64,000 bases of DNA from positions 49,256 to 113,255 of the forward strand of contig JAAUZD010000016.1 of the NCBI GenBank assembly GCA_014804785.1, read 5' to 3'. The DNA is from Lachnospiraceae bacterium (GTDB lineage Bacteria > Bacillota > Clostridia > Lachnospirales > Lachnospiraceae). A program made the position numbers and the translations under genes. The notes under the pieces were generated by a model. The model saw nothing but the letters and a program-made list of their open reading frames with translations. It had not been told where the DNA came from and made no database searches. Shown here piece after piece: positions 4,862 through 20,738 of the stretch (its first letter is position 1; each line of letters begins with the position of its first letter).

Positions 4862-5004
4862 TTTACGGGTTCTCCGGGAAACGCTGATTAAATCGCTTCC
4901 ATAGGTCCGCTCTATATTTTACAGGATATTGTTTTCATTTGCAATAGATTGTGTTTTATCGTATGATAAATAATGTAACAGTTAAGTATAAAAGGAGTTT
5001 CGAT

Positions 5005-5937: not shown

Positions 5938-5945
5938 CAGATTTT

Positions 5946-6614
5946 TTATTCAAGTGCTGATACTTCAGCACTTGTTTCTTTATTTTGATCTACCTCCATC
6001 TCACAGACCTTTTCGTTCACTTGCTCCGGTGCAGGCATCTCACCCGTTTTCTCCCAATCCCTGTCCCTGAATTCCTCCTCAAGAATCTGTCTGATTATCC
6101 TGTTGTGCATTTCTCTCTTCTGATAATGAATAATCATAATGCAGGCAGCTGCGCAGGCAATCGCCATTACAATCAATGCAAATAGGAATATATCACTGTT
6201 TCCATATCCGCTGCTGAGAGTAATACCGCCTGCCAGTACCAATGCCAACAACGACAATATGATTGCATAAAAGCTGGAATTGTTCTCTGTCACCCTTGCA
6301 TAAAGAAAAAGATATTGATTTCTTCCGGTAATTTTTTCATTTAATTGTGAGCGGATTTTCTCTGCCAGTTCTTCTTCTCCATCTTTCCATTCCAGAATGT
6401 TGCCTCTTTTCCCTTTTGCTCCTTCTCTTGCTGCTTCAGCAATTTTCACTCCGTTATTTTTTATTTCCGCGTATTTTTCGTGTATTTGAGGACGCAATTT
6501 TGCAAGCACAAAAGCAATCCCATTTATAAAAGTCGTAATCAATTCGATGATCGCCACAAATAAATTAATAAAAGATTTTAATAAATTTTTGACTGCCTGA
6601 TACATCGCATCCAT
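5946..6614 (-). CDS. Hypothetical membrane protein
   Basis: 222-aa ORF with about three hydrophobic helices (FINLFVAIIELITTFINGIAFVL, FYAIILSLLALVLAGGITL, IFLFALIVMAIACAAACIMII) and an acidic C-terminus. No family recognised. Confidence 0.55.
   Translation of the reverse strand: MDAMYQAVKNLLKSFINLFVAIIELITTFINGIAFVLAKLRPQIHEKYAEIKNNGVKIAEAAREGAKGKRGNILEWKDGEEELAEKIRSQLNEKITGRNQYLFLYARVTENNSSFYAIILSLLALVLAGGITLSSGYGNSDIFLFALIVMAIACAAACIMIIHYQKREMHNRIIRQILEEEFRDRDWEKTGEMPAPEQVNEKVCEMEVDQNKETSAEVSALE
5951..5987 (+). terminator. Rho-independent terminator of the M15 peptidase gene
   Basis: Perfect 10-bp stem CAAGTGCTGA (5951-5960) / TCAGCACTTG (5965-5974), loop TACT, then a T-rich tract TTTCTTTATTTT. 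It lies inside the last codons of the convergent gene 5946..6614. Confidence 0.7.
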
Positions 6615-6746
6615 ATATGTATATTCCTTTCCTCTGGTGTGAAACCTTGAAATTTTTTAGTCTGTATTTTGCAGGTTGGAAATATTCTTTACACCTACTA
6701 TAACACAAATCTTTGAAAAAAACACTATCACGAGGAAAGTAGAAAA

Positions 6747-8099
6747 TCATAAAATATCCACTTTTTTCTGAAACTCTTTTCTGGTACTGAGGATGCAGTA
6801 CACTACCGCTATGCCTTCAGAAATCCACATTGCAAACCAGGCTGATTGGATACCATTATTTGCTGTAAAAAGATAGATGGCAGGAACCAGCAGGATAAGC
6901 TGTCTCAATGCAGTTCCCACCATATTTATTACGCCATTTCCCAGCCCTGAACAGGTAAATCCCAGTATAATAGACACTGCTGCCAGCGCAAACGTAACTG
7001 AAATAATACGCAAAGCAGGAACTCCGATAGCAAGCATCTCACTGCCTGCTGCAAAAAGCGTCAATATCTGACTCGGAATCGCCATAAAAAGCACCGTTCC
7101 AAACAGTGCAAATCCCACTGCAAAGGGTAGCATGGTTTTAAGAACCGCTTTGATTCTATCTTTATCTTTCGCTCCATAATTGAATCCGACAATAGGAATC
7201 GCTGCCTGTCCTAAGCCATTAATCGGCATCATAAGAAAGTTCTGCAGCTTATAATAAACTCCGTAAAATGCTACAGCAGTTGCCGAAAATGACATCAATA
7301 TTGCATTTACTGAAAAAAGCATGATGCTGCCGATTGCCTGCATAACAATTGTTGGAAATCCAACTTTATAAATTGCCCAGACACAATCTTTTGTCATCTT
7401 GAATTTCTTCCATGACAAATGAATTTCCGTGTTTTTAAAACGATTCAGCGCCAGAGCAACCCCTGCTCCCATCCACTGACCAATCACAGTTGCAATCGCC
7501 GCACCACGAATCCCCATTTCCGGACACCCGAATAACCCGAAAATCATGATAGGATCCAAAATCAGATTCACAACGGCGCCTACTACAAGAGAAATCATAC
7601 TCAGCAGAGTAAGCCCAACAGATTGCAGCAACCTTTGCGCCAATGTTTCTACAAAAATACCAAGACAAAAAATCATACAAATACTCAGATAACTACCGCA
7701 AAGTTCCCCTGTAACAGGGTCATCCGTAAACCAAATACCGAAATCGTCAGCGAAAAAAATCCCCAAGAGCATAAAAAAAGCTGCACAAATGACGGAGATA
7801 ACCAGACCGGTAACTGCTGTCTGATTTGCTGCTTCCTTCTGTTTAGCTCCAATCTGCCTTGATATCAGAGCATTGACACCAACACCAGTACCAACTGATA
7901 CTGCAATCATCAATACCTGAATCGGATATGCCAATGAAGTTGCTGTCAAAGCATTTTCACTGATCCTTGCCACAAAAATACCATCTACAATATTGTAAAG
8001 CGACTGAACCAAAAGTGAAATCATCAAGGGCAGGGACATAGAAAACACTAGCTTCCCCATAGGCATAACTGCCATTTTATTTTGCTTTTCATTATTCAT
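6747..8099 (-). CDS. MATE family efflux transporter
   Basis: 450 aa, about 12 TM segments, MATE-type N-terminus PMGKLVFSMSLPLMISLLVQSLYNIVDGIFVARI. It starts only 36 nt downstream of the preceding operon gene. Confidence 0.88.
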   Translation of the reverse strand: MNNEKQNKMAVMPMGKLVFSMSLPLMISLLVQSLYNIVDGIFVARISENALTATSLAYPIQVLMIAVSVGTGVGVNALISRQIGAKQKEAANQTAVTGLVISVICAAFFMLLGIFFADDFGIWFTDDPVTGELCGSYLSICMIFCLGIFVETLAQRLLQSVGLTLLSMISLVVGAVVNLILDPIMIFGLFGCPEMGIRGAAIATVIGQWMGAGVALALNRFKNTEIHLSWKKFKMTKDCVWAIYKVGFPTIVMQAIGSIMLFSVNAILMSFSATAVAFYGVYYKLQNFLMMPINGLGQAAIPIVGFNYGAKDKDRIKAVLKTMLPFAVGFALFGTVLFMAIPSQILTLFAAGSEMLAIGVPALRIISVTFALAAVSIILGFTCSGLGNGVINMVGTALRQLILLVPAIYLFTANNGIQSAWFAMWISEGIAVVYCILSTRKEFQKKVDIL

Positions 8100-8135
8100 T
8101 AAAAATCAGCCTCCCTTATATCATCATGTCACACA

Positions 8136-8975
8136 TTAATCTGCATCCACTGGCTGATTATGATATTCCTCATACAAATCATTGATAAAATCAAACAAAT
8201 GATGCCATTCAACCTGTCCATGGTACAATACCTTCTGCAGGTAAGCTTCATCACATTTTGTCCGGGGTTCCCGCACCAATTCCCCATTCTCTGTTGGACG
8301 CCATCCAATCCACTCTACACTCCTTCTTTCAAACCCGCCTTCTTTACAGGGACGGATTTGTCCCAGTGTCAGGTGTGCTCCAGGTTCATCAAAAGACTCC
8401 CAATCTGAGTTTTCGTTTACATTGCATCCCGAATTCTTTATTTCTGCAATTTTATCATCTGTCAGCCCAAACTTCCGAAGACTAAAGGTATGGCGGATAG
8501 AATTCACTTTCCGATCTCCCTCTCCCATATCCAGACTTTCAGTTGTATGTATTCCGTCTGATTTGTCAGTCCAGTTTATAAAATAATGATCCCAATGATC
8601 GGCTGGATTCCAAATCTTATAGCGCAGATTGCCATGACCAAGAACAGAGCTCTTGGAATGCACATTCATCCAGTTTAAATACCAGAATATTTTTTTCACA
8701 TCTACATTGTCAGGAATTTTCATATAGGTGCACACGTACCCGCTTCCATCTGGAAACATGCAATAACCATTTTCCACTTTTTCATATTGTCCACATGGTT
8801 TTAACCACTGGACAAATTTCTGTGCAGGCACTGCATCCTCATAGTGCATGGCAGGACCAAAAATCTGCATTTTCAGTTCTTCCGGTAAATCTTTTACCGG
8901 GTAATTATAATAATATTTAGAAAGCGGCATTATTTTTTCCTCCGGAAAAAGTTCCGGTAATGTTGAATAACTCAT
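8136..8975 (-). CDS. DAPG hydrolase / phloretin hydrolase (PhlG/Phy) family protein (tentative)
   Basis: 279 aa from the ATG at 8975, which is preceded by AAAGGAG (the ORF track begins at a TTG at 8990). From memory, the motif GNLRYKIWNPADHWDHYF resembles the conserved LRYKIW(D/H)PxxH block of this C-C hydrolase family. Not verifiable here. Confidence 0.5.
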   Translation of the reverse strand: MSYSTLPELFPEEKIMPLSKYYYNYPVKDLPEELKMQIFGPAMHYEDAVPAQKFVQWLKPCGQYEKVENGYCMFPDGSGYVCTYMKIPDNVDVKKIFWYLNWMNVHSKSSVLGHGNLRYKIWNPADHWDHYFINWTDKSDGIHTTESLDMGEGDRKVNSIRHTFSLRKFGLTDDKIAEIKNSGCNVNENSDWESFDEPGAHLTLGQIRPCKEGGFERRSVEWIGWRPTENGELVREPRTKCDEAYLQKVLYHGQVEWHHLFDFINDLYEEYHNQPVDAD

Positions 8976-8986
8976 TTTTTCTCCTT

Positions 8987-10156
8987 TCAACTTCCTCTTT
9001 TGATATCATTAAGGAATTCTATCATTTCATTTTCAAACGTCTTAACATGATTCGATGCTATTTTACCTTGATGTCCATTTGTACACTCAAGCAGAATCGT
9101 GTGCTGGAATGGTGAATTCATACGGATTTTTTTAGATGTCTTTACACAAAACCGGACAGGACATCCTATCAGAACCAGTTCATTTATCTTAAGTGCGATG
9201 ATTTCTGCCTCTGATACCTGCTGCTGTCCACAAGCCGGAAAAATTATTTTTCTTCTATGTAATCTTACAGCTCCTCTTACTTCTTCACAGGAAATGAAAT
9301 CCATGGCCTGCACCACTGAGCGTGCAAGCCGCCGACTCAACAGTTCTATGAATAGAAATCCACGTTTCTGAATATCCGATTGCTCTATTTTCTTTTCACC
9401 GTCAATGTAATCCCATTCCGCCCGAAGCGTGGGCCACTGATCGGCAGATGCCCCCAGCAAATAGACTGCATTCGCACATAATTGCTCTTCCAGCAGCCGC
9501 TCCGAGCCGGATGCCATATCTCCGGAAATGAGACGATTTCCTTCGTATGAAAACGCATTTTCCAAAACCCCCGCCGCAGAGCTGACAGTGAACAGAACAG
9601 ATATTAATTCTCCTGCATCGTTTTCAAATCTGATTACCGGAAGCAGATGCTCCGTTTCTCCGGATTCATTTGTTGCTCTAAAAAATTCCCTATTCCTTTT
9701 CAGAACGCAGTTGACTCCTACCCGGCACACTCCATATCCTATTCCAATCTTTACCGGAACCAAATTTGCCTGTGCTTCAAGTGCAGCCATTAAAAGAGCT
9801 GACAAGACAACACGGTGAAGCAAAGTACTCTTTGCATCCTCCTGCCTCTCACTGGTTTCCTTTGGGCAACTACAGCTTGGTGTAGAAAAGACCTGATTGA
9901 CATGAAGTATAACATTTTCCACTGAACAGTTCACTGTATTTGCTATTTTTTGCCGGATATCATGCCAATCATCAATATCTACAATATCACAAACCGCAAA
10001 CACAATGCGGCGATCTGATTCCAACACTGTGACATGAACCAGCGGCGTGTCATGTACACCTGAAAACCCCTCCTGCCCACTGGAAAAAAAATCCTGCGGG
10101 TACAAAATACCTGCTTTTCCGACACCTATTTTCAACATAAATCCATTCCCTCTCAT
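8987..10156 (-). CDS. Hypothetical protein (weak neutral-ceramidase-like N-terminus)
   Basis: 389-aa ORF whose start overlaps the upstream stop. An alternative Met at 10138 has a GAGGG RBS. The N-terminus KIGVGKAGILYP...HDTPLVHVTVLESDRRIVFAVCDIVDI loosely resembles ceramidase-type N-termini. No secure motif. Confidence 0.6.
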   Translation of the reverse strand: MRGNGFMLKIGVGKAGILYPQDFFSSGQEGFSGVHDTPLVHVTVLESDRRIVFAVCDIVDIDDWHDIRQKIANTVNCSVENVILHVNQVFSTPSCSCPKETSERQEDAKSTLLHRVVLSALLMAALEAQANLVPVKIGIGYGVCRVGVNCVLKRNREFFRATNESGETEHLLPVIRFENDAGELISVLFTVSSAAGVLENAFSYEGNRLISGDMASGSERLLEEQLCANAVYLLGASADQWPTLRAEWDYIDGEKKIEQSDIQKRGFLFIELLSRRLARSVVQAMDFISCEEVRGAVRLHRRKIIFPACGQQQVSEAEIIALKINELVLIGCPVRFCVKTSKKIRMNSPFQHTILLECTNGHQGKIASNHVKTFENEMIEFLNDIKRGS

Positions 10157-11301
10157 TATAATTTCACATACGTCACATAAGCTGCCGCAGATTGATTTAC
10201 CAGCCTTCCGGTGGTTTCAAGCATGCCATCTTCCTGTATTCGGAACACTTCAATATCCCCAGACTTCATACATGTTGTAATCAAATATCTTCCATCCGGT
10301 GACACTGTCCCTCCTCTCAGCCATTTTCCCCTGCTTACTTTTTGGTTCTGAATCAATATCATTTTTCCGGTTTCTTCATCAACCTCAAAAACCGCAATGA
10401 CTTCAGGTCCATTAATCATATCATAAATATATTTTCCGTTTGGATGAATTGCCAGACCTTGTTGTTCATCATGACTGATGTCACGCTCAGAATGATCCGC
10501 ACACGCAATTCCCTCTGCAGTAAATAGCAATGTGATTTTTCCCTGCTCATCATATTTAAAACTGGACAATGCTGTATTTCCTTCATAGTTTACAAATAAA
10601 ATTCTTTTCTTTGGATGAAACACGCAATACCTTGGCATGCTTCCGGGAATATCTTTGTAAGGCACATCACATAAAACCAATTTATCTTCTGCCAGCTTAT
10701 ACATGTAAATACTATCATTTCCTTTATCGCACACCGCAAATAGATCATCAATTGGAGACTTCACTACACAATGAGGTCGGGCGTGCTTTTGCTGTGGGCG
10801 GATGCCAGAACCGGTATGCTTAGCCACATCCAGAAGTTCTCCGATTCTTCCGTCCTCATTTACCTCAAACAAATTCACCACCGCATCATCCTGCACAGTC
10901 TGCATGTAATATTTTCCAAATGCATCTTTTCTGATCTTGCTGACCGCTCCAAACCCTGAATGATTGGAAACTAAGATTTTCTGTCCGGTTTTATCCATAG
11001 CTATGAAAGTAGGGTTTGGGCAAAATGTCAAAGTTCTGTCCATTTCCTTGAGGCTCCCATCATCTAATATTTGATAGGTCAGGATCGCGCCGGAATTGAT
11101 ATTCTGTATATTTGCCACTTCATTACATACATACAATATCCTTTTTTCCTGTGATACAAAAGACGCATTACATGAATCTTCTTGATTCATCATCCTACAA
11201 AAACGCAGTTCTCCTGTTGACGGCTCCAATTCATAGACTCCGATTCCCGGTTCACCGCCAAAATTATTCCAGCTGCTGATATACACAAATGTCTTTAACA
11301 T
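10156..11301 (-). CDS. Lactonase-family 7-bladed beta-propeller protein
   Basis: 381 aa. N-terminus FVYISSWNNFGGEPGIGVYELEPSTGELRF, and the periodic repeats through the protein are typical of the 6-phosphogluconolactonase-like beta-propeller family. Confidence 0.65.
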   Translation of the reverse strand: MLKTFVYISSWNNFGGEPGIGVYELEPSTGELRFCRMMNQEDSCNASFVSQEKRILYVCNEVANIQNINSGAILTYQILDDGSLKEMDRTLTFCPNPTFIAMDKTGQKILVSNHSGFGAVSKIRKDAFGKYYMQTVQDDAVVNLFEVNEDGRIGELLDVAKHTGSGIRPQQKHARPHCVVKSPIDDLFAVCDKGNDSIYMYKLAEDKLVLCDVPYKDIPGSMPRYCVFHPKKRILFVNYEGNTALSSFKYDEQGKITLLFTAEGIACADHSERDISHDEQQGLAIHPNGKYIYDMINGPEVIAVFEVDEETGKMILIQNQKVSRGKWLRGGTVSPDGRYLITTCMKSGDIEVFRIQEDGMLETTGRLVNQSAAAYVTYVKL

Positions 11302-11333
11302 ATTTTAATAATTTCCTCCTTCATTCTATGCAG

Positions 11334-12281
11334 TTATAACTCATGCACTCTGCAACATGAGACAAAGTGATTCTTCTCGACCTCAACAAGCTTTTGAGGC
11401 TGGTTACAGGCTTCCTGTGCATATGGGCATCTCGGCGCAAAACGACAACCAGGTTTCGGATTAATTGCAGATGTAATTTCTCCCTTTAAAGCTAAAAGCT
11501 CCAATGGTTTTCTAATGTCTGTTGATGGAATTGCAGATAATAACGCTTTCGTATAGGGATGAAGCGCATTTGTAAATAAGCTTTCTGTCTCCGCCTTCTC
11601 CACAAGCTGTCCCAGATACATCACGCAAATATTATTGGAAATATGGCGTACGACAGATAGATCATGTGTAATAAACATATAAGTAACTTTTGTTCTTTCC
11701 TGGATATCCATCAAAAGATTTAAAACCTGTGCTTGAATAGATACATCTAATGCTGATACCGGTTCATCACATACGACAAACTTAGGATTTAGCGCCAATG
11801 CTCTTGCAATTCCGACACGCTGTCTTCTTCCACCATCAAGCTCGTGGGGATATGCCTGCCGCAAACGCTGATCAATTCCAACCATATCCATTAATCGCTC
11901 AGATTCCTCCGTAATTTGTGCTTTCTTATATTTTTTAGAAAGCTTCATCGGCTCTCTTACAATCGATTCGATGCACATGCGGGGATTTAGAGACGAATAG
12001 GGATCCTGAAAGATCATCTGTATTTCTTCCCGCACTTTCGTTAATTCTTTTCCCTTAATATGGGTGATGTCCTTTCCTTCCAAAAGGATTTCCCCGTCCG
12101 TAGGCTCCAGCAGATGCATCAGCACCCTTCCTAAAGTGGATTTTCCGCATCCGGATTCACCAACTACTCCTAATGTTTCTCCATGCTCTATCGAAAAGGT
12201 GACGTCATCTACCGCATGATTTACACCATGTGCACTCTTAAAATATTTTTTCAAGTGATTGACTTCTATAATATTACTCAT
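11334..12281 (-). CDS. Opp/Dpp-type ABC transporter ATP-binding protein (OppF-like)
   Basis: Walker A GESGCGKST, Walker B VVCDEPVSALD, C-terminal oligopeptide-type extension with Cys motif. Start MSNIIEVNHL follows a GGAGG RBS and overlaps the upstream gene by 8 nt. Confidence 0.9.
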   Translation of the reverse strand: MSNIIEVNHLKKYFKSAHGVNHAVDDVTFSIEHGETLGVVGESGCGKSTLGRVLMHLLEPTDGEILLEGKDITHIKGKELTKVREEIQMIFQDPYSSLNPRMCIESIVREPMKLSKKYKKAQITEESERLMDMVGIDQRLRQAYPHELDGGRRQRVGIARALALNPKFVVCDEPVSALDVSIQAQVLNLLMDIQERTKVTYMFITHDLSVVRHISNNICVMYLGQLVEKAETESLFTNALHPYTKALLSAIPSTDIRKPLELLALKGEITSAINPKPGCRFAPRCPYAQEACNQPQKLVEVEKNHFVSCCRVHEL

Positions 12282-13266
12282 CTGCTGTACCTCCATGCTT
12301 TAAATTGCAACAGGCGCAAAAATGACCAGGCTCTAATTCCACTACAGGCATCTGCCCCTGTCTGCATTTTTCGGTGGACTGTGGGCAGCGTGGATGAAAA
12401 GGACACCCTGAAGGAAGATTGGTGGGATCTGCCGGCAGCCCTTCAATGGGTGTAAGCCTCCGTACTTTTTTATCCATACTCGGTAAAGAAGAAAACAGTC
12501 CTTTCGTATAAGGATGAGACGGATTTAAAAACACATCATTACGTTCTCCGGCTTCCACCACAGTGCCTGCATACACAACAATTACCCGGTCGCTTGTCTG
12601 CGCTACAACCCCCAGATCATGGGTAATCAAAATCATTGAGGCACTATACTGTTTTTTCAGATCATTGATAAGACCTATCACCTGTGCTTGAATCGTCACA
12701 TCTAACGCAGTGGTGGGTTCATCAGCAAGAATTAATTCCGGATTACATGCCAGTGCCATTGCGATCACGACCCTTTGCTTCATGCCGCCCGAAAACTGAA
12801 AAGGATATTCCCCGAAACGGGTAACGGGAATACCGACCAATTCCAGCATTTCTTTTGCTTTTTTACACGCCTCATCTTTATTACTGTATCCATGCAGCAA
12901 ATAGCAATCTACGATTTGGCTCCCAACGGTTTTTACAGGATTTAATGCTGTCATTGGATCCTGAAAAATCATGGCAACCTTTTTGCCTCTGATTTCTGTC
13001 ATTTCCTTTTCCGGTTTCTCCAAAAGGTTTTCACCATCCAGCCAGACCTCGCCCTCACGGATCTTTGCCGGCGGATCCGGCAAAATTCTCATGATTGTTT
13101 TTGCCAGAGTCGTTTTTCCTGCGCCTGTCTCTCCGACAATTGCCAAGGTTTCTCCTTTTTTCATGGTAAATGAAATACCATTAACCGCATGAACAATTTT
13201 CTTGTCAGAAGTGTATTCAACACAAAGATTTTTTACTTCGAGAAATTCATTTCCTTGTTTTTCCAT
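12274..13266 (-). CDS. Opp/Dpp-type ABC transporter ATP-binding protein (OppD-like)
   Basis: Walker A GETGAGKTT, signature FSGGMKQRVVIA, Walker B ILADEPTTALD. Confidence 0.9.
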   Translation of the reverse strand: MEKQGNEFLEVKNLCVEYTSDKKIVHAVNGISFTMKKGETLAIVGETGAGKTTLAKTIMRILPDPPAKIREGEVWLDGENLLEKPEKEMTEIRGKKVAMIFQDPMTALNPVKTVGSQIVDCYLLHGYSNKDEACKKAKEMLELVGIPVTRFGEYPFQFSGGMKQRVVIAMALACNPELILADEPTTALDVTIQAQVIGLINDLKKQYSASMILITHDLGVVAQTSDRVIVVYAGTVVEAGERNDVFLNPSHPYTKGLFSSLPSMDKKVRRLTPIEGLPADPTNLPSGCPFHPRCPQSTEKCRQGQMPVVELEPGHFCACCNLKHGGTADE

Positions 13267-13275
13267 GACTACCTC

Positions 13276-14148
13276 CTATTTTCTTAATTTAGGGTCCAAA
13301 GCGTCCCGAAGACCATCACCTAAAAGATTGGTTGCAAAAACAGTCAACGCAATAAAGATTCCCGGAATAATAATCAAATATGGATAACTCATTAAATGCA
13401 TTCTTGCATCTGATAATAAGGCGCCCCACTCCGGAGTTGGCGGCTGAACACCAAGACCTATATAACTTAACGATGCCGCCATGGCGATATTATCGCCAAT
13501 CCCCATCGTCAGGCAGATAATCATAGGTGAAATTGCATTGGGCAGCATATGTTTAAAGATAATTCTTGCTTTAGAACAATTTATCGTTTCGGCAGCCTCT
13601 AGGTATTCCTGAGAACGCTCAATAAGCACCTGTGAACGCATCATTCGCACATTAGAAGGAACCTGTGACACAGCAAGCGCTATAATTGTATTTACAAATC
13701 CCGGACCTAACGCCGACGAAATCAAAATGCAAAGCAGAATTGCAGGCAGGGAAGAAATAATATCAAGAATCCGCATAATAAACGATTCCACAAATCCTCC
13801 ATAATATCCGGCAATACATCCCAGAAAAATCGCCACAACTGTGCTAAATATCGCACCGCAGAATCCAAGTGCCAGAGAATATCTTCCACCATATAAAATC
13901 CGAGTGAACAAATCCCTGCCAACTGTATCTGTGCCAAAAATATGTTGTAATGACGGTCCATGAAACCGTTCGGACATCTGCATCTCATTGACTCCATAGG
14001 GTGCAATCAGGGGAGCAAAAATGCAGGCGAGAATGATAATTGCCAGAAGTATCGCACCAATCTTTGCGCCTGCCGACCGGACAGTCCCCTGCAAAACCCC
14101 TACCCAGACCGGAGTACGTTTCACTTTTTTCTTTTCTCTTTCCATCAC
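13276..14148 (-). CDS. ABC transporter permease (OppC/DppC-like)
   Basis: 290 aa, 6 TM, binding-protein-dependent transport signature region. Adjacent to the OppB-like gene. Confidence 0.88.
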   Translation of the reverse strand: MMEREKKKVKRTPVWVGVLQGTVRSAGAKIGAILLAIIILACIFAPLIAPYGVNEMQMSERFHGPSLQHIFGTDTVGRDLFTRILYGGRYSLALGFCGAIFSTVVAIFLGCIAGYYGGFVESFIMRILDIISSLPAILLCILISSALGPGFVNTIIALAVSQVPSNVRMMRSQVLIERSQEYLEAAETINCSKARIIFKHMLPNAISPMIICLTMGIGDNIAMAASLSYIGLGVQPPTPEWGALLSDARMHLMSYPYLIIIPGIFIALTVFATNLLGDGLRDALDPKLRK

Positions 14149-15090
14149 TCATCGTCCTCCTTTTGAAAATTGTGCTCTAATACGAGGATCGATTGCCGCA
14201 TAGGCAAGGTCTACTGCCAGCATAATGAGCGAAACACACAGCGCCAGAAACAGCACACATGCTCTTACTGTTGGATAGTCACGCTGGTTGATTGCTGTTA
14301 GCAGATAATTTCCAACACCAGGAATGGAAAATACTGATTCAATGACGGGAGCTCCTGCTATTATGCCTGATAAGATACGCCCCATATTTGTAATAGTCGG
14401 CATCAGGGCATTGGGCAGCATCTCCTTGTAAATCACTAATTTTTCCTTCATTCCCTTTGCTCTTGCTGTGGTAATATAATCTGCGCGAAAAACTTCAACA
14501 ATACTGTTTCGCATAAAACGTGCATTAACGGCAATACCTGCAACCGCACTGGCAATAATCGGCATAATATAATATTCGTATCCACCGATGCCATAGGCAG
14601 GAAGAAGATTTAGCTTGGCGGAGAATAAAAGAACAAGCATCAATGCAACCCAAAAATTAGGGCATGCGATAAAAACCATCAAAATGCACATCACTAATGA
14701 ATCCTGCCATTTTCCTGCATGTACTCCGGCAAATATGCCCATTAAAATTCCAATTGCCAAATTGATTACCATTGCGCCAATCCCTATTGTCAAGGTCCTT
14801 GGAATTCTTGTCATAAGTTCGCCAAACACGGGCGTTCCATAAGTCCACGACTTACCAAAATCGAATTTTATGAACGTATTGTACATAAATTCGCCAAGTT
14901 GTACTGCATAGGGGCGGTTCAAGCCAAGCGTCTCCCTCAGTGCTTCCTTTTCCGCCCATGTAGCTGAAATGCCAAGCTGTGCATCAGCAGGATCCGCTGG
15001 TGTAAAATATAAAAGTGTAAATATTAAGAATGCTGACGCTACTAAAATGAGTATCATTGTTAATAAGCGCCGGATGATATATCTGCACAT
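14149..15090 (-). CDS. ABC transporter permease (OppB/DppB-like)
   Basis: MCRYIIRRLLTMILILVASAFLIF... is a typical OppB N-terminus. The start at 15090 is 5 nt after GGAGG. Confidence 0.88.
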   Translation of the reverse strand: MCRYIIRRLLTMILILVASAFLIFTLLYFTPADPADAQLGISATWAEKEALRETLGLNRPYAVQLGEFMYNTFIKFDFGKSWTYGTPVFGELMTRIPRTLTIGIGAMVINLAIGILMGIFAGVHAGKWQDSLVMCILMVFIACPNFWVALMLVLLFSAKLNLLPAYGIGGYEYYIMPIIASAVAGIAVNARFMRNSIVEVFRADYITTARAKGMKEKLVIYKEMLPNALMPTITNMGRILSGIIAGAPVIESVFSIPGVGNYLLTAINQRDYPTVRACVLFLALCVSLIMLAVDLAYAAIDPRIRAQFSKGGR

Positions 15091-15186
15091 AGAAACCTCC
15101 ATTAACAGTAAATCCGGGAAGTGCTGTAAAATTACAGCACTTCCACACTTTTGTTACCTATGACTCTATAAAGGCCATTTTTATTT

Positions 15187-16806
15187 TTAGTCCAAATTAT
15201 AAGTGGAGCAGGAAGGGAATATATAAACCTTATCATTTTCTGGTATGATACAGTCCTTGGTCACAACGGCTCTTAAGTCAATTCCAATCATAATCCAGCT
15301 GTACGCATTTTCTATACAATAATCTCCCAATGCGGTAATGGTTGCATCCCCATGTGTTTTCACGTTGCAGGCCTCCTGCACAAGTCTCTGTAATTCGTCA
15401 TCTTTAATGAATCCAAGTGCATATTCATTATTTTGATTTGCTGCATTAAACAATTTGTCCACTTCATTTGTGATAAATGTGCCACCAGCACCAAAAATCA
15501 TTAAATCCCATGCACTAGGCTCTGAAAGAGAAGTGTCAAGAATTGTCTGGTCAACCGCATTAATCTTTGTGCGAATGCCTACATTTTCAAGACATACCTG
15601 CATAACCATTGCTGCGTTCTTATATTGTTCTGAAGTGGAAGTAACTAAAAGCAATTCCTCTCCATTATAAGCTGTTTTTGCAAGATACTCTTTTGCAAGT
15701 TCCGGGTCACAAGTGTTAGCAAAGGTGGTCTTTTCTTCTGTTGCAGCAACATAGTCCGGGCAAGCTACAGATCCGAATCCATGACAGGCAAATGTTCCTG
15801 CCATTGCCTCTGCAACTGCATCACTGTCAATTGCGTAGAAAATAGCTTTTCGCATATTAACATCACTTGTCAGCGCACTACTGTCACAATTGGGAAGTAA
15901 AGCCCAAAAATCAGTACTGGGAAGGCTGACACACTGTAAAGTATCAGAATTCTGGAAACTTTCAAATGCTTCATCAGCAAGATAGTAAGCAACATCTATC
16001 GTACCTTGTTGAAGTCCGATTACAGCCTGGGATGACTCCGTAATAATGTCAAATTCAAGTCTGTCAACGTTCGCCTGCTGATGTTGTGTACGAAGTTCTT
16101 CCGGCTGCCAATAATTTTCATTATAAGTCAGGACAATTTTAGAACCTGCTGTAAACTCCTCCACAATATAAGGGCCAGTACCTACAGGCTTTGTAGCCCA
16201 AGTATCTTCATTCCATTCTGAACTGCTGTAAATAGGAACCTGGCACCAAATATGTTCAAAAGGTCCCATATCTGTTGGTTCAAATGCCCACTCAAATTCC
16301 ACCACATAATCACCTACTGCTGTAACTTTGCCAAAATAACTCCATCTTCTTAAATAGCCTGCATCAATAAATCGTTCATAACATTCGACAACATCCTGTG
16401 CCGTAATATTATTTCCGTTCCAGTCTGTAATATAGTCATACAGCTCTACTTGATAGTGCGTTGGATCAATTACTGTATATCCTTTTGCCGCACGGTTAAT
16501 ATATTCTCCATCAATAAAATCAAATAACGTGTCATAAATTGCGTTATAGACCGGCGGTTTTGCATTTGCTTTGCAGTTCCATGGAAGCAATTCTGCCGGG
16601 TCATTGCTGAGTGCCATGGTAATAGAATCATATCTTCCATTATCATCTGCATCTTTTAACGCTCCGCCGGCTGCTGTTCCGTCCGATCCTTCTTCTGCGC
16701 CGTGTGTCTGTGATCCAGCATCTGGTGTCTGCGTATCTGCATTTCCACATGCAAAGACTGAAAACATCATTAGTACTGTCATTAATGTTGCAATTATCTT
16801 TTTCAT
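15187..16806 (-). CDS. ABC transporter substrate-binding lipoprotein, family 5 (peptide/nickel/opine type)
   Basis: 539 aa with a lipoprotein signal peptide MKKIIATLMTVLMMFSVFAC-G. Family-5 SBP size and its position upstream of the permeases. Confidence 0.85.
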   Translation of the reverse strand: MKKIIATLMTVLMMFSVFACGNADTQTPDAGSQTHGAEEGSDGTAAGGALKDADDNGRYDSITMALSNDPAELLPWNCKANAKPPVYNAIYDTLFDFIDGEYINRAAKGYTVIDPTHYQVELYDYITDWNGNNITAQDVVECYERFIDAGYLRRWSYFGKVTAVGDYVVEFEWAFEPTDMGPFEHIWCQVPIYSSSEWNEDTWATKPVGTGPYIVEEFTAGSKIVLTYNENYWQPEELRTQHQQANVDRLEFDIITESSQAVIGLQQGTIDVAYYLADEAFESFQNSDTLQCVSLPSTDFWALLPNCDSSALTSDVNMRKAIFYAIDSDAVAEAMAGTFACHGFGSVACPDYVAATEEKTTFANTCDPELAKEYLAKTAYNGEELLLVTSTSEQYKNAAMVMQVCLENVGIRTKINAVDQTILDTSLSEPSAWDLMIFGAGGTFITNEVDKLFNAANQNNEYALGFIKDDELQRLVQEACNVKTHGDATITALGDYCIENAYSWIMIGIDLRAVVTKDCIIPENDKVYIFPSCSTYNLD

Positions 16807-16852
16807 ATTTTTTACCGTCCCTTTCTTTGATTACTATAGCTTTTTGTTAGTT

Positions 16853-17746
16853 TTAGGCCAATGTTCTTTCAGCCTTGTGCAATCCAGCGAACTCCATGAA
16901 TCTCTCAACGGATTCTTCCCAGAACGGAGAGTTATGTGTTGCCTGATCATACATGTCAAAAGTGATATTTTCAACGTTAAGCTCATCACAATGATCTTTA
17001 AAAAGCCCCATCATGGGTCCCCATTTCTTTTCAATAGCACCCGATACGAAAATCTTCGGCATTTTACCTGCCGCTGCCGCCTCGTCAAAACGTGCCCATG
17101 TATTTTCAATAGAATCCAGGAAATCTCCTACCGTTGGATATCTACATATTGTCACCAATTCCTTTGCATGAAGCGTCCCAGAATCAATTCCATAAGCCGT
17201 TGGAATTTTTTCTCTTTCTGAAAGTTCTCTGAACTCTTTATTTGTCAGATTACGATACGGCTCAAGATAACTATAATTTAACGGCTGATTACATAAAGGT
17301 CCTACATAACCAAAAATTTCGGGATAAGATAGTCCATATCTCCAGCTTGCTGCACATCCCATAGAGTTACCTGAAATCAAGTTTTCTTCAGGGTCATCCG
17401 AACCGTGAAACCATGTTCTGACGAGCGGAACAAGCTCTTTTATAAAGAAATCTTCAAACATAAATCCCTCGCCCACTCCAGGCTGATTTGCAAAATCAAA
17501 ATTAGGTGCATAGGGCGCTACCATAATGCAGTTCCTCTCTGATGCGTAACGAGGCACTTTATTATAAGTCACCCAATCTGCAAAACTTCCGTAACCGCCA
17601 TGCAGCATCCACAAAACCGGAAATTTTTTATTTCCTCCGTAAAACTCATCCACATCAGCATCTGTAAGCGGATTTGGCGTAATGATTGTGACGTCTACTG
17701 TGCCTGCAATGTATTTTGATCTAAGTTTAATATAAAATTCCGACAT
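16853..17746 (-). CDS. Alpha/beta-hydrolase esterase (putative-esterase/EstA-like family)
   Basis: 297 aa. Oxyanion region PVLWMLHGGYGSFADW, nucleophile elbow GNSMGC (GxSxG). No signal peptide. Confidence 0.8.
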   Translation of the reverse strand: MSEFYIKLRSKYIAGTVDVTIITPNPLTDADVDEFYGGNKKFPVLWMLHGGYGSFADWVTYNKVPRYASERNCIMVAPYAPNFDFANQPGVGEGFMFEDFFIKELVPLVRTWFHGSDDPEENLISGNSMGCAASWRYGLSYPEIFGYVGPLCNQPLNYSYLEPYRNLTNKEFRELSEREKIPTAYGIDSGTLHAKELVTICRYPTVGDFLDSIENTWARFDEAAAAGKMPKIFVSGAIEKKWGPMMGLFKDHCDELNVENITFDMYDQATHNSPFWEESVERFMEFAGLHKAERTLA

Positions 17747-17779
17747 TTTTCCCTCCTGTCCGGCAGTTTCCTTTTAATT

Positions 17780-18721
17780 TTAATGAAGTGTAATTCCGTT
17801 TTCTTCATCTTCAAAATCATTTGAACCTGTTTTAATTGGTGCACTGCCATCATTCTTTTCAACATTTTCAAGTCCTGCAAAATCCATAAAATCTTCTACT
17901 GCATTTTCCCAAAAGTCTGTATTGTATGAAGGTTTATCGCTAAGATCAAATGTAATATTCGTCACTCCTAAATCTTCTGTATGCTTTTTAAAATCAGCCA
18001 TTTCCGTGGCATTCCCCGGAAGATAAATACGAGGCAGTCTTCCATCTTTTGCCGCTTCGTCAAATCTTGCCATAGTATTTTCCATGGAATCTAAAAAATC
18101 GCCAACTGTGGCATACTTGCATATATTATTGATCTCCCGCATACGCAATCTCTGCCCTTTTTCTCCATAAGCTGATAAAATATATTTTTCCCCTGCCATC
18201 TTTCTAAAATCATCTCTGCACATATCACGATATTCTTCCAGATGCCTGTAGTCGTTAGGTGCCTGCCCCAAAGGTGCAATACAGCCAAACGTTCCCGGAT
18301 TCAGCAGCCCATAACGCCATACCGCTTCGCACCCCATGGAATTCCCTGCAAGAAAATTTCTGGCTGGATCTGATGATGCAGGAAACCAATTATAAATAAA
18401 CGGCATCAGCTCATGATAAAAAAAGTCATAAAATTTATATCCTTCCCCAACAAGTGGTTGATTAATAAAATCACTATTTGGAACAGACGGTGCAACAATA
18501 ATGGTATTTTTCCAAATTCCTAATCTTGGAACAGAGCTATAAGTAATCCAATCTGCATATGTATCTTCTCCTCCATGCAATAGCCATAGTACAGGAAACT
18601 TTTTCCCTGAATTATAAAATCGCTCTGGTTTGTGCCCTACAAAAGGATTTGGCATAATAATATTTAAATCAACTGTACCGTCAAGATAATTTGACCTTAA
18701 TTTTACAAAATATTCAGACAA
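17780..18721 (-). CDS. Alpha/beta-hydrolase esterase, paralog of 16853..17746
   Basis: 313 aa. PVLWLLHGGEDTYADW, GNSMGC. Alignable end to end with the downstream esterase. First gene of the operon. Confidence 0.8.
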   Translation of the reverse strand: MSEYFVKLRSNYLDGTVDLNIIMPNPFVGHKPERFYNSGKKFPVLWLLHGGEDTYADWITYSSVPRLGIWKNTIIVAPSVPNSDFINQPLVGEGYKFYDFFYHELMPFIYNWFPASSDPARNFLAGNSMGCEAVWRYGLLNPGTFGCIAPLGQAPNDYRHLEEYRDMCRDDFRKMAGEKYILSAYGEKGQRLRMREINNICKYATVGDFLDSMENTMARFDEAAKDGRLPRIYLPGNATEMADFKKHTEDLGVTNITFDLSDKPSYNTDFWENAVEDFMDFAGLENVEKNDGSAPIKTGSNDFEDEENGITLH

Positions 18722-18840
18722 GCGTTCATCCCTCCTTTTATTGATTGTTCATGCACAATTACCTTGTACATTGCCGCCATTACCGGTTGTGACGGCTTTT
18801 AAAGCTATCAATTTGTACAAATCTGCTGTCTTACAAGTTA

Positions 18841-18870
18841 ATAATATCAGCACATTTAACAACAGTCCAA
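18841..18870 (-). promoter_or_regulatory. Possible promoter of the esterase/ABC operon
   Basis: Minus strand TTGGAC (18865-18870), 18-nt spacer, TATTAT (18841-18846). Moderate match only. Confidence 0.3.
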
Positions 18871-18941
18871 CAGGAGTATTCCAAAAATCAACAGCAAAAA
18901 ACCTGTGATTTTTATTGTTATAATTTGGATTTTTGCTATAG

Positions 18942-18971
18942 TTGACAAAAAAAAACTTCACATGCTATCAT
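18942..18971 (+). promoter_or_regulatory. Promoter of the LysR-family regulator gene
   Basis: TTGACA (18942-18947), 18-nt spacer, TATCAT (18966-18971), 45 nt upstream of the ATG. Confidence 0.55.
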
Positions 18972-19015
18972 TAAAAATATGACTTTATTATTTACTCTTC
19001 AATGGTGATGCATTT

Positions 19016-19975
19016 ATGAATTTTACTAATTTAAAAAATTTTATAGCCTTGGTAAACGCAGGAAATATCAGCCGTGCTGCCTCCCAGCTATATATTTCCC
19101 AACAAACACTCAGCGAGAACCTTGCTAAGCTGGAGCTGGAGATTGGCACCACACTATTCAACCGTGGAAAGCACATTGTTCTTACTCCGGCAGGCAAACG
19201 TTTTTATTCCTTTGCACTGAATACTATTGAAGAACAGAATGCTATGAAAAATGATATTCAGCAGATTATAGATAGTGAAAAGAAAACGGTCTCCTGTGGT
19301 GTGCAGACTTTTGAATCGCCGATATTTCTTTCCAATCTTTTGATGCGTTTTTATGAAATTTATCCGGATTACCGCGTAAATATATATTCCCAGAAAAATC
19401 TGGATTCCAGTGCTCAGGATCATGTAGATGTTGATTTTATTTTCAGCGATTTTGATTTGGATGGTTCCATTCATTTTGCTGAGGCAGACTGGCATTATGA
19501 ATGCCTTTCGAGAAGTAACAGATTTGCAATTATTGCCAAAAAAACCTTACTGAGTGAAGTCTATGGAGACAAATGGTGTGATATCGAAAAGATGCTTCTT
19601 GCTGAAAAATCCTTATCCATCGTCCATAACCTTCCTTTTCTCACGGTGCGGAATCAAAACAATTTGCATTATCGCACGCTAAAAAGGGCGTTTGAGCTTT
19701 CAGGTCTTGAACCTAATATAGGATTTCAGGTGGATATGAATAGCCTGACAAACGATTTATGTGCTAAAGGTGTTGCCGCATATTTTGGTCCTGAAGGACT
19801 ATGTCGGCTGAAATTTAATACCTTTATCAACGTTTCTGATTTGTGCTTATATCCAGTCATTATTCCGAATCTCTACAATGGAATTGCAATCTGTTACAAA
19901 AAAAAGAATGTTTTAAACAGCGCACAGCTTAAGTTTATTAAATTAAGTAAGGAATTGGCCGACGGCGAAACATAA
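19016..19975 (+). CDS. LysR family transcriptional regulator
   Basis: N-terminal wHTH FIALVNAGNISRAASQLYISQQTLSENLAKLE, about 320 aa. Divergent from the catabolic operon. Confidence 0.9.
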   Translation: MNFTNLKNFIALVNAGNISRAASQLYISQQTLSENLAKLELEIGTTLFNRGKHIVLTPAGKRFYSFALNTIEEQNAMKNDIQQIIDSEKKTVSCGVQTFESPIFLSNLLMRFYEIYPDYRVNIYSQKNLDSSAQDHVDVDFIFSDFDLDGSIHFAEADWHYECLSRSNRFAIIAKKTLLSEVYGDKWCDIEKMLLAEKSLSIVHNLPFLTVRNQNNLHYRTLKRAFELSGLEPNIGFQVDMNSLTNDLCAKGVAAYFGPEGLCRLKFNTFINVSDLCLYPVIIPNLYNGIAICYKKKNVLNSAQLKFIKLSKELADGET

Positions 19976-19992
19976 TTTGATATATAAATCAA

Positions 19993-20016
19993 AACCCCGC
20001 ATTCTCATGCGGGGTT
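19993..20016 (-). terminator. Rho-independent terminator after rplQ (end of the alpha operon)
   Basis: Stem AACCCCGCAT (19993-20002) / ATGCGGGGTT (20007-20016), loop TCTC, with a U-run on the minus strand (plus AAAA 19991-19994). May also stop the convergent LysR gene. Confidence 0.8.
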
Positions 20017-20029
20017 CCTATCTTGCTGA

Positions 20030-20566: not shown

Positions 20567-20738
20567 CTTTTTGGCTCCTTTCTCAATGGGTCTAAAGCCC
20601 TTCATGGTACATCCGGTCACGCTCTTTGGACTTACTTACCGAATGCAGTTACATTCCATTTATGAGAACGCACTGCGAACTCTTTGGATTTACCGCTATG
20701 CGCATCACAACACAAATAAGTAATGATTAGAAATAGAA

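Follow-up and report, generated by a model that had tools for sequence, protein, structure and literature searches.

An acquired LysR-linked operon around a PhlG/Phy-type hydrolase in a gut Lachnospiraceae genome, with a proposed role in import, hydrolysis and export

Layout of the inserted block

The window analyzed here, a stretch of 64,000 nucleotides from a Lachnospiraceae genome, carries an accessory block at positions 6633 to 19990 that comprises a LysR-type regulator gene (19016 to 19975, plus strand) and a divergent operon of 11 co-directional genes (6747 to 18721, minus strand). In operon order, the genes encode two esterase-family proteins (est1 and est2), a solute-binding protein (SBP), OppB, OppC, OppD and OppF, a lactonase-family protein, a ceramidase-fold protein, a PhlG/Phy-family hydrolase and a MATE transporter. 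A preliminary description had proposed this arrangement from the sequence; all 11 ORFs and the divergent regulator are present, and each ORF belongs to the family named there, according to Pfam. The block is flanked by a membrane-protein gene (5946 to 6614) on one side and by the rplQ terminator on the other. By blastn, a genome of the same genus (G012, locus L030) is collinear with the window up to 6632 and again from 19991, with 366 bp in place of the block, which is thus a single insertion relative to this congener; both G012 and G018 have the order ecfA-M15 peptidase-membrane protein-rplQ with no genes intervening. No repeats were found at the borders of the block.

The intergenic distances, in operon order, are 33, 46, 84, 0, 9, -23, 32, -1, 11 and 36 nt, such that the gaps of 0 to 50 nt or overlaps originally described hold at most junctions but not between the SBP gene and oppB (84 nt). 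This gap contains a palindromic hairpin (15117 to 15144, 12-bp stem), as is usual in such gaps of ABC operons, and no strong minus-strand terminator was found inside the operon. On the basis of this spacing and with no strong terminator between them, the 11 genes are predicted to form a single transcript. The divergent control region (18722 to 19015) contains a promoter-like site on each strand (TTGACA-18-TATCAT at 18942 to 18971 on the plus strand, matching at 11 of 12 positions, and a minus-strand site at 18869 to 18841) and has no Rfam match. The regulator matches PF00126 (HTH_1, 7.2e-17), and its LysR_substrate score (26.3 bits) is slightly below the cut-off of 28.

Proteins encoded by the operon

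The hydrolase (8136 to 8975, minus strand) matches PF18089 (DAPG_hydrolase) at 1e-16, with a score of 61.6 bits against a cut-off of 22.7, which bears out the family that had been assigned tentatively from a sequence block. The N-termini of its homologues favor the ATG start at 8975 (279 aa) given in the preliminary description over the longer ORF from TTG 8990. Its profile finds MaPhy (5xe5, 7e-14) and PhlG (3hwp, 2e-7) in the PDB, and its AF2 model (pLDDT 94.7) has the PhlG/Phy fold (Foldseek matches to 5xey, 3hwp and 5xe5 at probability 1, TMq 0.65 to 0.68). All four zinc ligands of PhlG have conserved counterparts in the protein (H132, E151, H257 and E261), H132 lying in that block (LRYKIWNPADH). 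H132, H257 and E261 are invariant, and E151 occurs in 18 of 19 sequences; its assignment as a ligand is based on conservation and strand position, HMMER having left it unaligned to the PhlG Glu. The protein is accordingly predicted to be a Zn-dependent retro-Claisen C-C hydrolase. It shares with Phy (Eubacterium ramulus; Mycobacterium abscessus 5xe5/5xey) and Pseudomonas PhlG (3hwp) the PF18089 domain, a Bet v1-like fold, a length of about 280 aa, the [LI]W-x-P-x-x-H motif and an H-x3-E pair on the C-terminal helix; unlike them, it falls below every NCBIfam cut-off, belongs to a clade of its own (whose members are called 'hypothetical protein' wherever the source names them) and has a loop from the first His to the Glu that is about 12 residues shorter. 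PhlG is reported to be highly substrate-specific (PMC8003664), and at only 18-22% identity to PhlG and MaPhy the specificity of these enzymes is not transferable to the window protein.

The two esterases of the preliminary description both match PF00756, but the catalytic His is kept by est2 only. The est2 protein (16853 to 17746, minus strand; 5e-8) is of the CE1 type, with Ser128 in a GNSMG motif and His271, both in conserved columns. The est1 protein (17780 to 18721, minus strand; 2.7e-7), which starts at TTG 18721 with a ribosome-binding site (AAAGGAGGG) 9 nt upstream, is 50% identical to est2; at the position of the His that is conserved in est2 and 17 other est2-like proteins, it reads SYNT. 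The His is also missing in nine of 10 est1-like relatives (the Ser in three). Because the relatives without His form a whole lineage of full-length proteins (53-73% identity), the loss is old and tolerated. The est1 protein belongs to this conserved paralogue lineage and is probably a pseudo-esterase. The nearest solved structures to est2 are the feruloyl esterases 7xrt (2.8e-10) and XynZ (1jjf). The pair resembles these CE1/esterase-D enzymes in the PF00756 domain and the GxSxG nucleophile elbow, and the N-terminal half aligns with them at 1e-10, the C-terminal half not being alignable by sequence; it differs in its predicted cytoplasmic location, in having no carbohydrate-binding or xylanase modules, and in being a tandem pair with the His lost in one copy. 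Signal peptides are absent from the esterases, the lactonase and the hydrolase.

The lactonase-family protein (10156 to 11301, minus strand) is a seven-bladed beta-propeller, also predicted to be cytoplasmic, that matches the Lactonase model PF10282 at 1.4e-48, as had been anticipated. It is only 30-33% identical to nine hydrolase-linked homologues and keeps all 43 columns that are invariant among them. Among solved structures, the gluconolactonase PpgL (6igb, 5.2e-17) comes closest, and the solved bacterial relatives that have a functional name are sugar lactonases rather than phenolic lactonases.

The adjacent gene (8987 to 10156, minus strand; alternative start possibly ATG 10138) encodes the 389-aa protein formerly listed as unknown, and it indeed has no Pfam or NCBIfam match. 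Its AF2 model (pTM 0.83) now assigns it the catalytic-domain fold of neutral ceramidase (Foldseek matches to 2zws and 4wgk, E 2e-19, probability 1; profile comparison with 2zws, 6.5e-10). Unlike neutral ceramidase, it is sub-threshold in Pfam and has no C-terminal Ig-like domain. The ceramidase residues H97, H99, H204 and E411 correspond to Q88, F90, an Ala and R335 here, and the Tyr region to a deletion, so that the zinc site is absent. All zinc and catalytic residues kept by its relatives are missing in this protein. A word-indexed search of 5.8 billion proteins found only five relatives. It is probably a pseudo-enzyme.

The importer consists of a family-5 solute-binding lipoprotein (15187 to 16806; SBP_bac_5, 1.9e-51) with an N-terminal signal and lipobox Cys, the permeases OppB (14149 to 15102) and OppC (13276 to 14148; BPD_transp_1 with BPD_transp_1_N or OppC_N), and the ATPases OppD (12274 to 13266) and OppF (11334 to 12296; ABC_tran with oligo_HPY), all on the minus strand. 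The usual ligands of family-5 SBPs are peptides, nickel chelates or opines; the nearest solved structures here, all weak, are 5u4o, a Ni-binding protein (3t66) and the opine binders AccA and AgaA. The OppBCDF proteins are 46-65% identical to those of related loci, and the SBP at most about 33%. The MATE efflux transporter (6747 to 8099, minus strand; MatE 4.6e-45, TIGR00797 1.6e-66) has orthologues (59-64% identity) adjoining the hydrolase in three related loci (L006, L116 and L139).

Related loci in other gut Clostridia

The hydrolase is found in none of 67 other genomes of the same genus and in four of 400 other genera of the family. Within 10 kb of hydrolases of the same clade (clade A) in other gut Clostridia (41 loci), the gene families of the operon recur in shuffled order, in favor of the preliminary description: lactonase in 23, ceramidase-like in 21, esterase in 22, Opp in 30, MATE in 16 and LysR in 24. 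Among 39 loci of a sister clade (clade B), Opp genes occur at 24 and a MATE gene at 27, whereas none has a lactonase or ceramidase-like gene. Two hydrolase paralogues occur in 12 of 41 clade-A and 30 of 39 clade-B loci. Because the same families recur near the same hydrolase clade and the block is one insertion relative to the congener, the grouping is beyond chance; the block is horizontally acquired and is a member of a modular locus family.

The hydrolase is the most conserved element (77-81% identity to sister loci). BD-FAE, a different feruloyl/acetyl-esterase family, takes the place of the PF00756 esterase in the sister loci, indicating that the esterase step is kept by non-orthologous replacement. 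The ceramidase-like protein of these loci retains an intact HxHS/His/Glu site and is a candidate amidase. At the distant Clostridia locus L017, a sugar ABC importer and a GH2 enzyme accompany a DAPG_hydrolase (35% identity), a lactonase (37%) and an est2-like esterase (50%), and at L126 and L151 a GPH-type glycoside transporter replaces Opp; these transporters and the GH2 enzyme point to a polar conjugate as substrate. Most carriers are bacteria of herbivore guts, the rumen and termite guts. Sister loci are also present in cultured bacteria, for instance Faecalicatena orotica DSM 1287, so that the hypothesis below is open to experiment.

Interpretation and comparison with known systems

The logic of import, hydrolysis and export is the best reading of the operon, the version in the preliminary description being partly supported. 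We give roughly an even chance to the full proposal, that the block is one acquired, LysR-controlled import-hydrolyse-expel operon of a modular gut-Clostridia family built around one PhlG/Phy-type clade, the substrate probably being a conjugated plant or microbial phenolic. The compound that the lipoprotein would bind and OppBCDF would import is envisaged as a polar conjugate derived from an aromatic ketone or a beta-tricarbonyl; a plant metabolite from the diet is most likely, one that bears an ester together with a lactone (or a group that can form one). In the cytoplasm, est2 would remove the ester-linked group as a feruloyl-esterase-like Ser/His hydrolase, the beta-propeller enzyme would open the lactone, and the zinc enzyme would cut the acyl-ring C-C bond by retro-Claisen hydrolysis, as do PhlG and phloretin hydrolase. 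Small acid or alcohol fragments would enter central metabolism, and the phenolic ring product, which the host genome would not degrade, would leave through the MATE pump. In the phloroglucinol pathway, the enzymes TAL and DPGC come from the BKACE and Cyclase families (PMC10470551). The 99.5%-complete genome has no gene of either family, and the known pathway is lacking, in keeping with an export of the ring.

The operon might instead serve the detoxification or scavenging of microbial beta-tricarbonyl antibiotics or signals (DAPG-like acylphloroglucinols, or 3-acyl-tetramic, tetronic or pyrone compounds), with the PhlG-like enzyme deacylating the compound, the lactonase opening the ring and the MATE pump expelling the fragments. 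Removing the acetyl group of an antibiotic is the only role characterized for PhlG in bacteria (PMC8003664), a lactonase paired with a C-C hydrolase would suit acyl-lactone scaffolds, the MATE pump is a partner at most sister-clade loci, and the second hydrolase paralogue is what a diacyl substrate would need. We nevertheless consider this unlikely, because a dedicated high-affinity importer would be unusual in a purely detoxifying system, and because the feruloyl-esterase-type esterases, the herbivore, rumen and termite gut carriers, and the glycoside transporters and GH genes of some loci point to dietary plant conjugates.

Two of the five soluble hydrolase-like proteins (est1 and the ceramidase-fold protein) look inactive and, from their residues, are probably non-catalytic; they may have a role as binding or partner subunits, or be in decay themselves, and the operon may thus have been decaying since its transfer. 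That the whole operon is a remnant losing function gene by gene, selection having gone in the present host, would also agree with the absence of the hydrolase from the 67 other genomes of the genus and with its long terminal branch in the tree. This seems to us quite improbable, however, given that all eleven reading frames are intact, that the est1 loss is shared by its lineage, that conserved residues are retained in est2, the lactonase and the hydrolase, and that the ceramidase-fold model is well folded.

The Opp-type importer with oligo_HPY ATPases and the candidate amidase of sister loci suggest uptake and degradation of a peptide-like natural product (a depsipeptide or lipopeptide), in which esterases open the esters and the ceramidase-fold protein removes the N-acyl chain; with that site missing from the window protein, no peptidase gene in the operon, and the highly conserved PhlG-like enzyme left unexplained, we regard this as very unlikely. 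Least probable is the use of a metal chelate (a NikA/CntA-like SBP importing a metal-chelator complex, Fes-like esterases and the other hydrolases destroying the chelator and so releasing the metal, MATE exporting the fragments): beta-tricarbonyls do chelate metals, one of the nearest solved SBPs binds nickel, the window SBP scores best in NCBIfam against the nickel-binding Opp5A/NikA model (5.9e-26) and both esterases weakly match enterochelin esterase, but all of these family matches are far below cut-off, the regulator is of the LysR rather than a metal-responsive type, BD-FAE replaces the esterase in sister loci, and a GPH symporter or sugar ABC system replaces the transporter in some.

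Returning to import, hydrolysis and export of a conjugated phenolic, the operon resembles substrate-inducible ABC-importer catabolic operons in its divergent LysR-type regulator, downstream enzymes, SBP gene placed first among the transporter genes and hairpin after it; unlike them, it ends with an efflux pump, has hydrolases as its sole enzymes and contains no redox, kinase or CoA enzymes. The genomic context of the hydrolase (Opp, MATE, lactonase and esterase) is not that of a phl biosynthetic cluster, of the CHI/enoate-reductase flavonoid genes, or of the phloroglucinol-degradation cluster in which the Mycobacterium phloretin hydrolase gene sits (PMC10470551). A literature search found neither a described pathway with this gene combination, in agreement with the preliminary description, nor a paper pairing Phy with a dedicated importer, exporter, lactonase and esterases, although the combination is not unique but one of a modular family of loci. 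The operon encodes neither a reductase nor a glycosidase, nor any enzyme of downstream catabolism, which counts against the proposed role, the gain for the cell being hard to see. With the gut flavonoid degradation genes (FLR, CHI, Fcr/enoate reductase and Phy) it shares a gut Lachnospiraceae host and a Phy-family enzyme for C-C cleavage; it differs from them in its dedicated importer, exporter, lactonase and esterases and in lacking CHI, reductase and flavone reductase, the CHI and enoate-reductase partners of known Phy loci being absent as first noted, whereas one related locus (L034) adds an Oxidored_FMN+Pyr_redox_2 flavoenzyme of the enoate-reductase type, as in flavonoid degradation.

Organization and genomic setting of the operon

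Eleven open reading frames (ORFs) on the minus strand make up the operon (18721 to 6747), from which one plus-strand ORF (19016-19975), encoding a probable LysR-type regulator, diverges. Pfam and NCBIfam searches recovered every family named in the preliminary description: two PF00756 proteins (est1, 17780-18721; est2, 16853-17746), an SBP (15187-16806) and Opp components, a PF10282 lactonase (10156-11301), a DAPG_hydrolase (8136-8975), a MATE protein (6747-8099) and LysR. The intergenic distances, in operon order, are 33, 46, 84, 0, 9, -23, 32, -1, 11 and 36 nt. A hairpin with a 12-bp stem occupies the gap 3' of the SBP gene (84 nt), and an Rfam scan of 5900-20100 returned zero matches. The est1 gene starts at TTG 18721, with a strong ribosome-binding site upstream, and the start of the hydrolase gene at ATG 8975 is backed by the N-termini of homologues. 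Signal peptides are absent from the esterases, the lactonase, the hydrolase and the 389-aa protein encoded at 8987-10156, and the SBP is a lipoprotein.

The importer is of the Opp/Dpp (PepT) type: its SBP belongs to family 5, and it has two permeases as well as two ATPases carrying the oligo_HPY C-terminal region. The MATE protein matches PF01554 in two stretches and TIGR00797 at 224.8 bits (cut-off 147.4), and the LysR protein matches HTH_1 above threshold (61.5 bits) and LysR_substrate slightly below it (26.3 bits, cut-off 28). The match of the lactonase to PF10282 is strong (166 bits, cut-off 21.7, E 1.4e-48), and the protein shares all 43 of the 43 columns that are invariant in nine hydrolase-linked homologues, despite being only 30-33% identical to them; we predict that 10156-11301 encodes a seven-bladed beta-propeller lactonase, a member of a family (PF10282) whose catalytic residues are undefined.

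In the genome of a relative in the same genus (G012), whose L17 is 95% identical to that of the window, collinearity with the window extends to position 6632 and resumes at 19991; 366 bp separate the two collinear parts there. In this genome and in a second one of the genus (G018) the region consists solely of ecfA, an M15 peptidase gene, a membrane-protein gene and rplQ. The block 6633-19990 is one insertion, since it coincides exactly with the operon plus the LysR gene. A search for border repeats at the insertion ends found none. Searches recovered the hydrolase from none of 67 other genomes of the genus and, among 400 other genera of the family, from 4; genomes related to that of the host come mostly from rodent and ruminant guts, and Lachnospiraceae bacterium 10-1 is one of them.

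The space between ecfA and rplQ (in the window, 4862-6632 and 19991-20029) is variable in the genus, at about 1.2-3.7 kb in five relatives (for example, loci L030, from G012, and L031). In two examined relatives it contains the M15 peptidase gene and a gene for a membrane protein of 190-220 aa, the latter 34-55% identical between species. The longest ORF for L17 itself (20030-20620) encodes 196 aa with an insertion, which the preliminary description had also pointed out; same-genus proteins align with it (79-95% identity) only from residue 8-16 on, and the true start is therefore probably downstream of the ORF start.

A predicted zinc hydrolase and two candidate pseudo-enzymes

Model score, fold and ligands all place the product of 8136-8975 in the PhlG/Phy family. 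It matches PF18089 at 61.6 bits (cut-off 22.7, E 1e-16) over 215 of 223 model positions, which upholds the DAPG_hydrolase assignment made tentatively from a sequence motif in the preliminary description. A profile of 19 homologues, searched against the PDB, matched the Mycobacterium abscessus phloretin hydrolase MaPhy (5xe5, 7e-14) and the Pseudomonas DAPG hydrolase PhlG (3hwp, 2e-7) and no other PDB entry; the identity of the window protein to the solved enzymes is only 18-22%. Its AF2 model (pLDDT 94.7) has the Bet v1-like fold expected of this family: the best six PDB matches are all MaPhy or PhlG chains (probability 1.0, TMq 0.63-0.68), and the next structure follows only at E 1e-3.

The zinc ligands of PhlG, reportedly H129, E160, H270 and E274 (He et al. 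2010), comprise two His and two Glu, and we looked for a site of this composition. Three of the metal ligands named as a check on the family call were located by alignment (H132, H257 and E261), and the fourth, E151, we infer. H132, in the motif IWNPADH, corresponds to the His of LWFPYAH in PhlG and of LWHPWCH in MaPhy, and H257 and E261 align with the H-x3-E pair of PhlG; the 19 sequences all carry these three residues, and 18 of them carry E151. In the AF2 model H132 opens one strand and E151 closes a later one; the long C-terminal helix carries H257 and E261, separated by one turn. Given the conservation of the ligands in the 19 sequences and their placement in the model, the metal site is very probably intact, and the predicted activity is retro-Claisen C-C hydrolysis. 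Two other residues considered as ligands, H119 (in an LGHGN motif) and E157 (in place of E151), are variable among homologues and were ruled out. The PhlG/Phy family is small (140 clusters at 50% identity among 1.84 billion in an exhaustive HMMER search), and the clade of the window hydrolase is uncharacterised, all 120 listed relatives being named 'hypothetical' or carrying no name.

The 389-aa protein (8987-10156) was described at first as unknown, and in terms of sequence families this stands, with zero Pfam or NCBIfam matches, PF04734 included; comparison of structures and profiles nevertheless recognises a neutral-ceramidase fold. Its AF2 model (pTM 0.83) retrieved the neutral ceramidases 2zws and 4wgk with Foldseek at probability 1 (E 2e-19 to 1e-17, TMq 0.65-0.68), and a family profile matched 2zws at 6.5e-10. 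Relatives score 25-30 bits on PF04734, against a cut-off of 32.1. They are few: only five turned up when 5.8 billion proteins were searched by word index, a search of species genomes for close ones found none, and within the genus there are just distant ones (435-448 aa, 24-28% identity). The Faecalicatena orotica locus encodes a 451-aa protein that matches the neutral-ceramidase model weakly and is 22% identical to the window protein.

The zinc ligands and catalytic His site of neutral ceramidase consist of H97, H99, H204, E411 and Y448 of PaCD, with positions as read in the alignments. By profile and family alignments, the window protein has Q88, F90, Ala and R335 at H97, H99, H204 and E411, and the stretch with the near-invariant Tyr is deleted. 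Both solved ceramidases conserve these four positions, as do the sister-locus proteins (with HTHS, His and Glu), and the first His is kept in 9 of 10 relatives. As judged from these alignments and the model, the protein is a ceramidase catalytic fold without the zinc site and, with the zinc-site residues replaced and the Tyr stretch gone, probably a pseudo-enzyme. Its start is also subject to revision: homologues begin at a MLKIG motif, and this favours ATG 10138 over both 10156 and a later start. A public gene call (P0001) has 334 aa, 55 fewer than the ORF.

The two esterases form a second case. Both belong to PF00756 (est2 33.5 bits, est1 31.1 bits, cut-off 22), as first described, and they are paralogues with 50% identity; among solved structures, their closest matches are the feruloyl esterases 7xrt and XynZ (1jjf); the designation as esterase holds less well for est1, for only est2 has both the Ser and the His. 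In est2, Ser128 (GNSMG) and His271 occupy conserved columns, and in an alignment of 28 relatives the GxSMG motif and C-terminal His are kept in est2 and in 17 of 17 other est2-like proteins. In est1 the His column holds Tyr; nine of ten est1-like relatives likewise lack the His, and three also lack the Ser. From its position and conservation, we infer that the missing residue is the catalytic His. Proteins of the est1 and est2 types seem to share contigs, judged by equally sized contigs; a 24,207-bp ENA contig, for example, seemingly holds est1-like P0129, est2-like P0162 and the hydrolase homologue P0022, a co-location deduced from equal sizes. The shared loss of His and this apparent co-occurrence suggest that est1 comes from an old, conserved, non-catalytic lineage that appears to travel with an active partner. 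The His-less paralogues (est1, P0128-P0144 and P0166) remain full length and are 53-73% identical. The active/inactive esterase pair and the zinc-less ceramidase fold would be tidy cases of pseudo-enzymes kept within an operon.

Related loci in other genomes

A motif scan of species genomes found 178 stretches of the hydrolase subfamily, and 80 loci were retrieved. The tree of hydrolases splits with full support into two clades, the window falling in clade A near Lachnospiraceae loci, with clade B as its sister. Genes lying up to 10 kb from the hydrolase were counted in 41 clade-A and 39 clade-B loci. Lactonase genes accompany it in 23 of the clade-A loci and in none of clade B, as do ceramidase-like genes (21 and 0) and, nearly so, LysR genes (24 and 2); any esterase occurs in 22 and 8 loci, Opp genes in 30 and 24, MATE genes in 16 and 27, and two hydrolase paralogues in 12 and 30, respectively. 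The gene families thus recur beside the hydrolase in other genomes, as the grouping proposed at the outset led one to expect, and gene order is freely shuffled between related loci. SDR and alpha/beta hydrolase genes are frequent in clade-B loci; considered as a phloroglucinol reductase, the SDR gave PDB and NCBIfam matches to generic SDR proteins only.

One common operon is found in Faecalicatena orotica, F. fissicatena and Mediterraneibacter hominis, comprising a divergent LysR gene and genes for SBP5-oppBCDF, a ceramidase-like protein, a BD-FAE esterase, lactonase, hydrolase, MATE and an aromatic-acid-exporter-like protein. Its hydrolase is 77-81% identical to that of the window, whereas the SBP, lactonase and ceramidase-like proteins are just 22-31% identical. 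Importers vary: L126 and the Hungatella locus L151 have a GPH-type glycoside symporter, and L017 has a sugar ABC system next to a GH2 enzyme, together with an est2-like esterase, lactonase and hydrolase. One termite-type locus also has an enoate-reductase-type flavoenzyme and three esterases.

Further loci deserve mention. L145 (11020-14412) resembles the window operon (lactonase-SBP5-Opp-est2-like-hydrolase) and continues with a GH106-like gene (sub-threshold) and a GH88 gene, families tied to the breakdown of pectin and unsaturated uronides. In Blautia glucerasea (L158, 34-2060), the hydrolase operon (SBP5-Opp-MATE-hydrolase-SDR-hydrolase) is immediately preceded by NifD/NifE-like (Oxidored_nitro) and NifH-like genes, and a related MAG (L147, 15-2104) has ORFs that match these genes in size and place. 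Hydrolases 55-73% identical to that of the window also occur in distant phyla, in a Desulfobacterales MAG (L127), Frondihabitans (L181), Propionibacteriaceae (L163) and Treponema and a Spirochaetaceae MAG (L159, L171 and L172), which suggests wide horizontal spread, or mis-binning in some MAGs.

Proposed function and known phenolic pathways

Families, folds and conserved residues, the insertion, and the recurring association of gene families are directly supported; the scheme that we propose goes further. The LysR protein would sense substrate or product, and the SBP and Opp system would bring in a polar conjugate, from which est2 would take off an ester-linked group; the beta-propeller enzyme would open a lactone, the zinc enzyme would cut an acyl-ring C-C bond, small fragments would nourish the cell, and the ring product would leave through the MATE pump. 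We favour a dietary plant conjugate as the substrate, because feruloyl-type esterases occur in both operon versions, glycoside-type transporters occur in some loci, and the hosts are from herbivore guts. Set against this evidence, a microbial beta-tricarbonyl antibiotic or a peptide-like product as the substrate is less well supported, as is simple decay of the operon; a metal chelate (the siderophore reading) ranks low.

A further, more novel idea is a long shot: that clade-A loci encode an undescribed catabolic route in which the PhlG/Phy-type zinc hydrolase and the sugar-lactonase-like beta-propeller act as a pair. A C-linked side chain would be freed from an aromatic or beta-tricarbonyl core and then handled as a lactone, with acyl-tetronate or pyrone scaffolds or glycoside-derived aldonoyl-type aryl ketones as candidate substrates; the pair would stand in for steps that a glycosidase or reductase carries out in known polyphenol pathways, and the His-less esterase paralogue and zinc-less ceramidase fold would be specificity or scaffold subunits.

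The analysis defines two uncharacterised PhlG/Phy-family clades in gut, rumen and termite Clostridia, both linked to dedicated importers and efflux pumps and not to known flavonoid genes. A substrate, if found, would supply a missing step in the dismantling of dietary or microbial phenolics by gut bacteria and explain phenolic products that they release to the host. The hypothesis is directly testable, since sister loci exist in cultured strains (F. orotica DSM 1287, F. fissicatena KCTC 15010, M. hominis NSJ-55, Hungatella hathewayi DSM 13479 and Blautia glucerasea).

In PMC10470551 and PMC11170127, phloretin hydrolase is the sole C-C cleaving hydrolase assigned to gut flavonoid breakdown. The chalcone isomerase and enoate reductase of known flavonoid and phloretin loci, whose absence here had been remarked on, were not found by domain searches among the 12 genes of the block, and an enoate-reductase-type gene occurs in just 1 of the 80 related loci. 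The anaerobic phloroglucinol pathway consists of PGR, DPGC, HOHDH and TAL, of which DPGC belongs to the Cyclase family and TAL to the BKACE family (PMC10470551); Cyclase (PF04199) and BKACE (PF05853) gave zero matches in the host genome, which is 99.5% complete, and the absence of these two enzymes fits export of the ring product by the MATE pump. Literature searches on the gene combination, on PF18089 and on gut DAPG hydrolase gave nothing relevant, in keeping with the preliminary description, which knew of no such pathway. The locus belongs to none of the described Phy or PhlG systems: it differs from the former in having neither chalcone isomerase nor reductase, from the PhlG system in having no phl genes, and its genome differs from those of anaerobic phloroglucinol degraders in lacking their pathway. 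Set beside these systems, it is probably a catabolic operon, presumed to be substrate-inducible, which brings together known hydrolase families in a combination not found described and in which two members are probably pseudo-enzymes.
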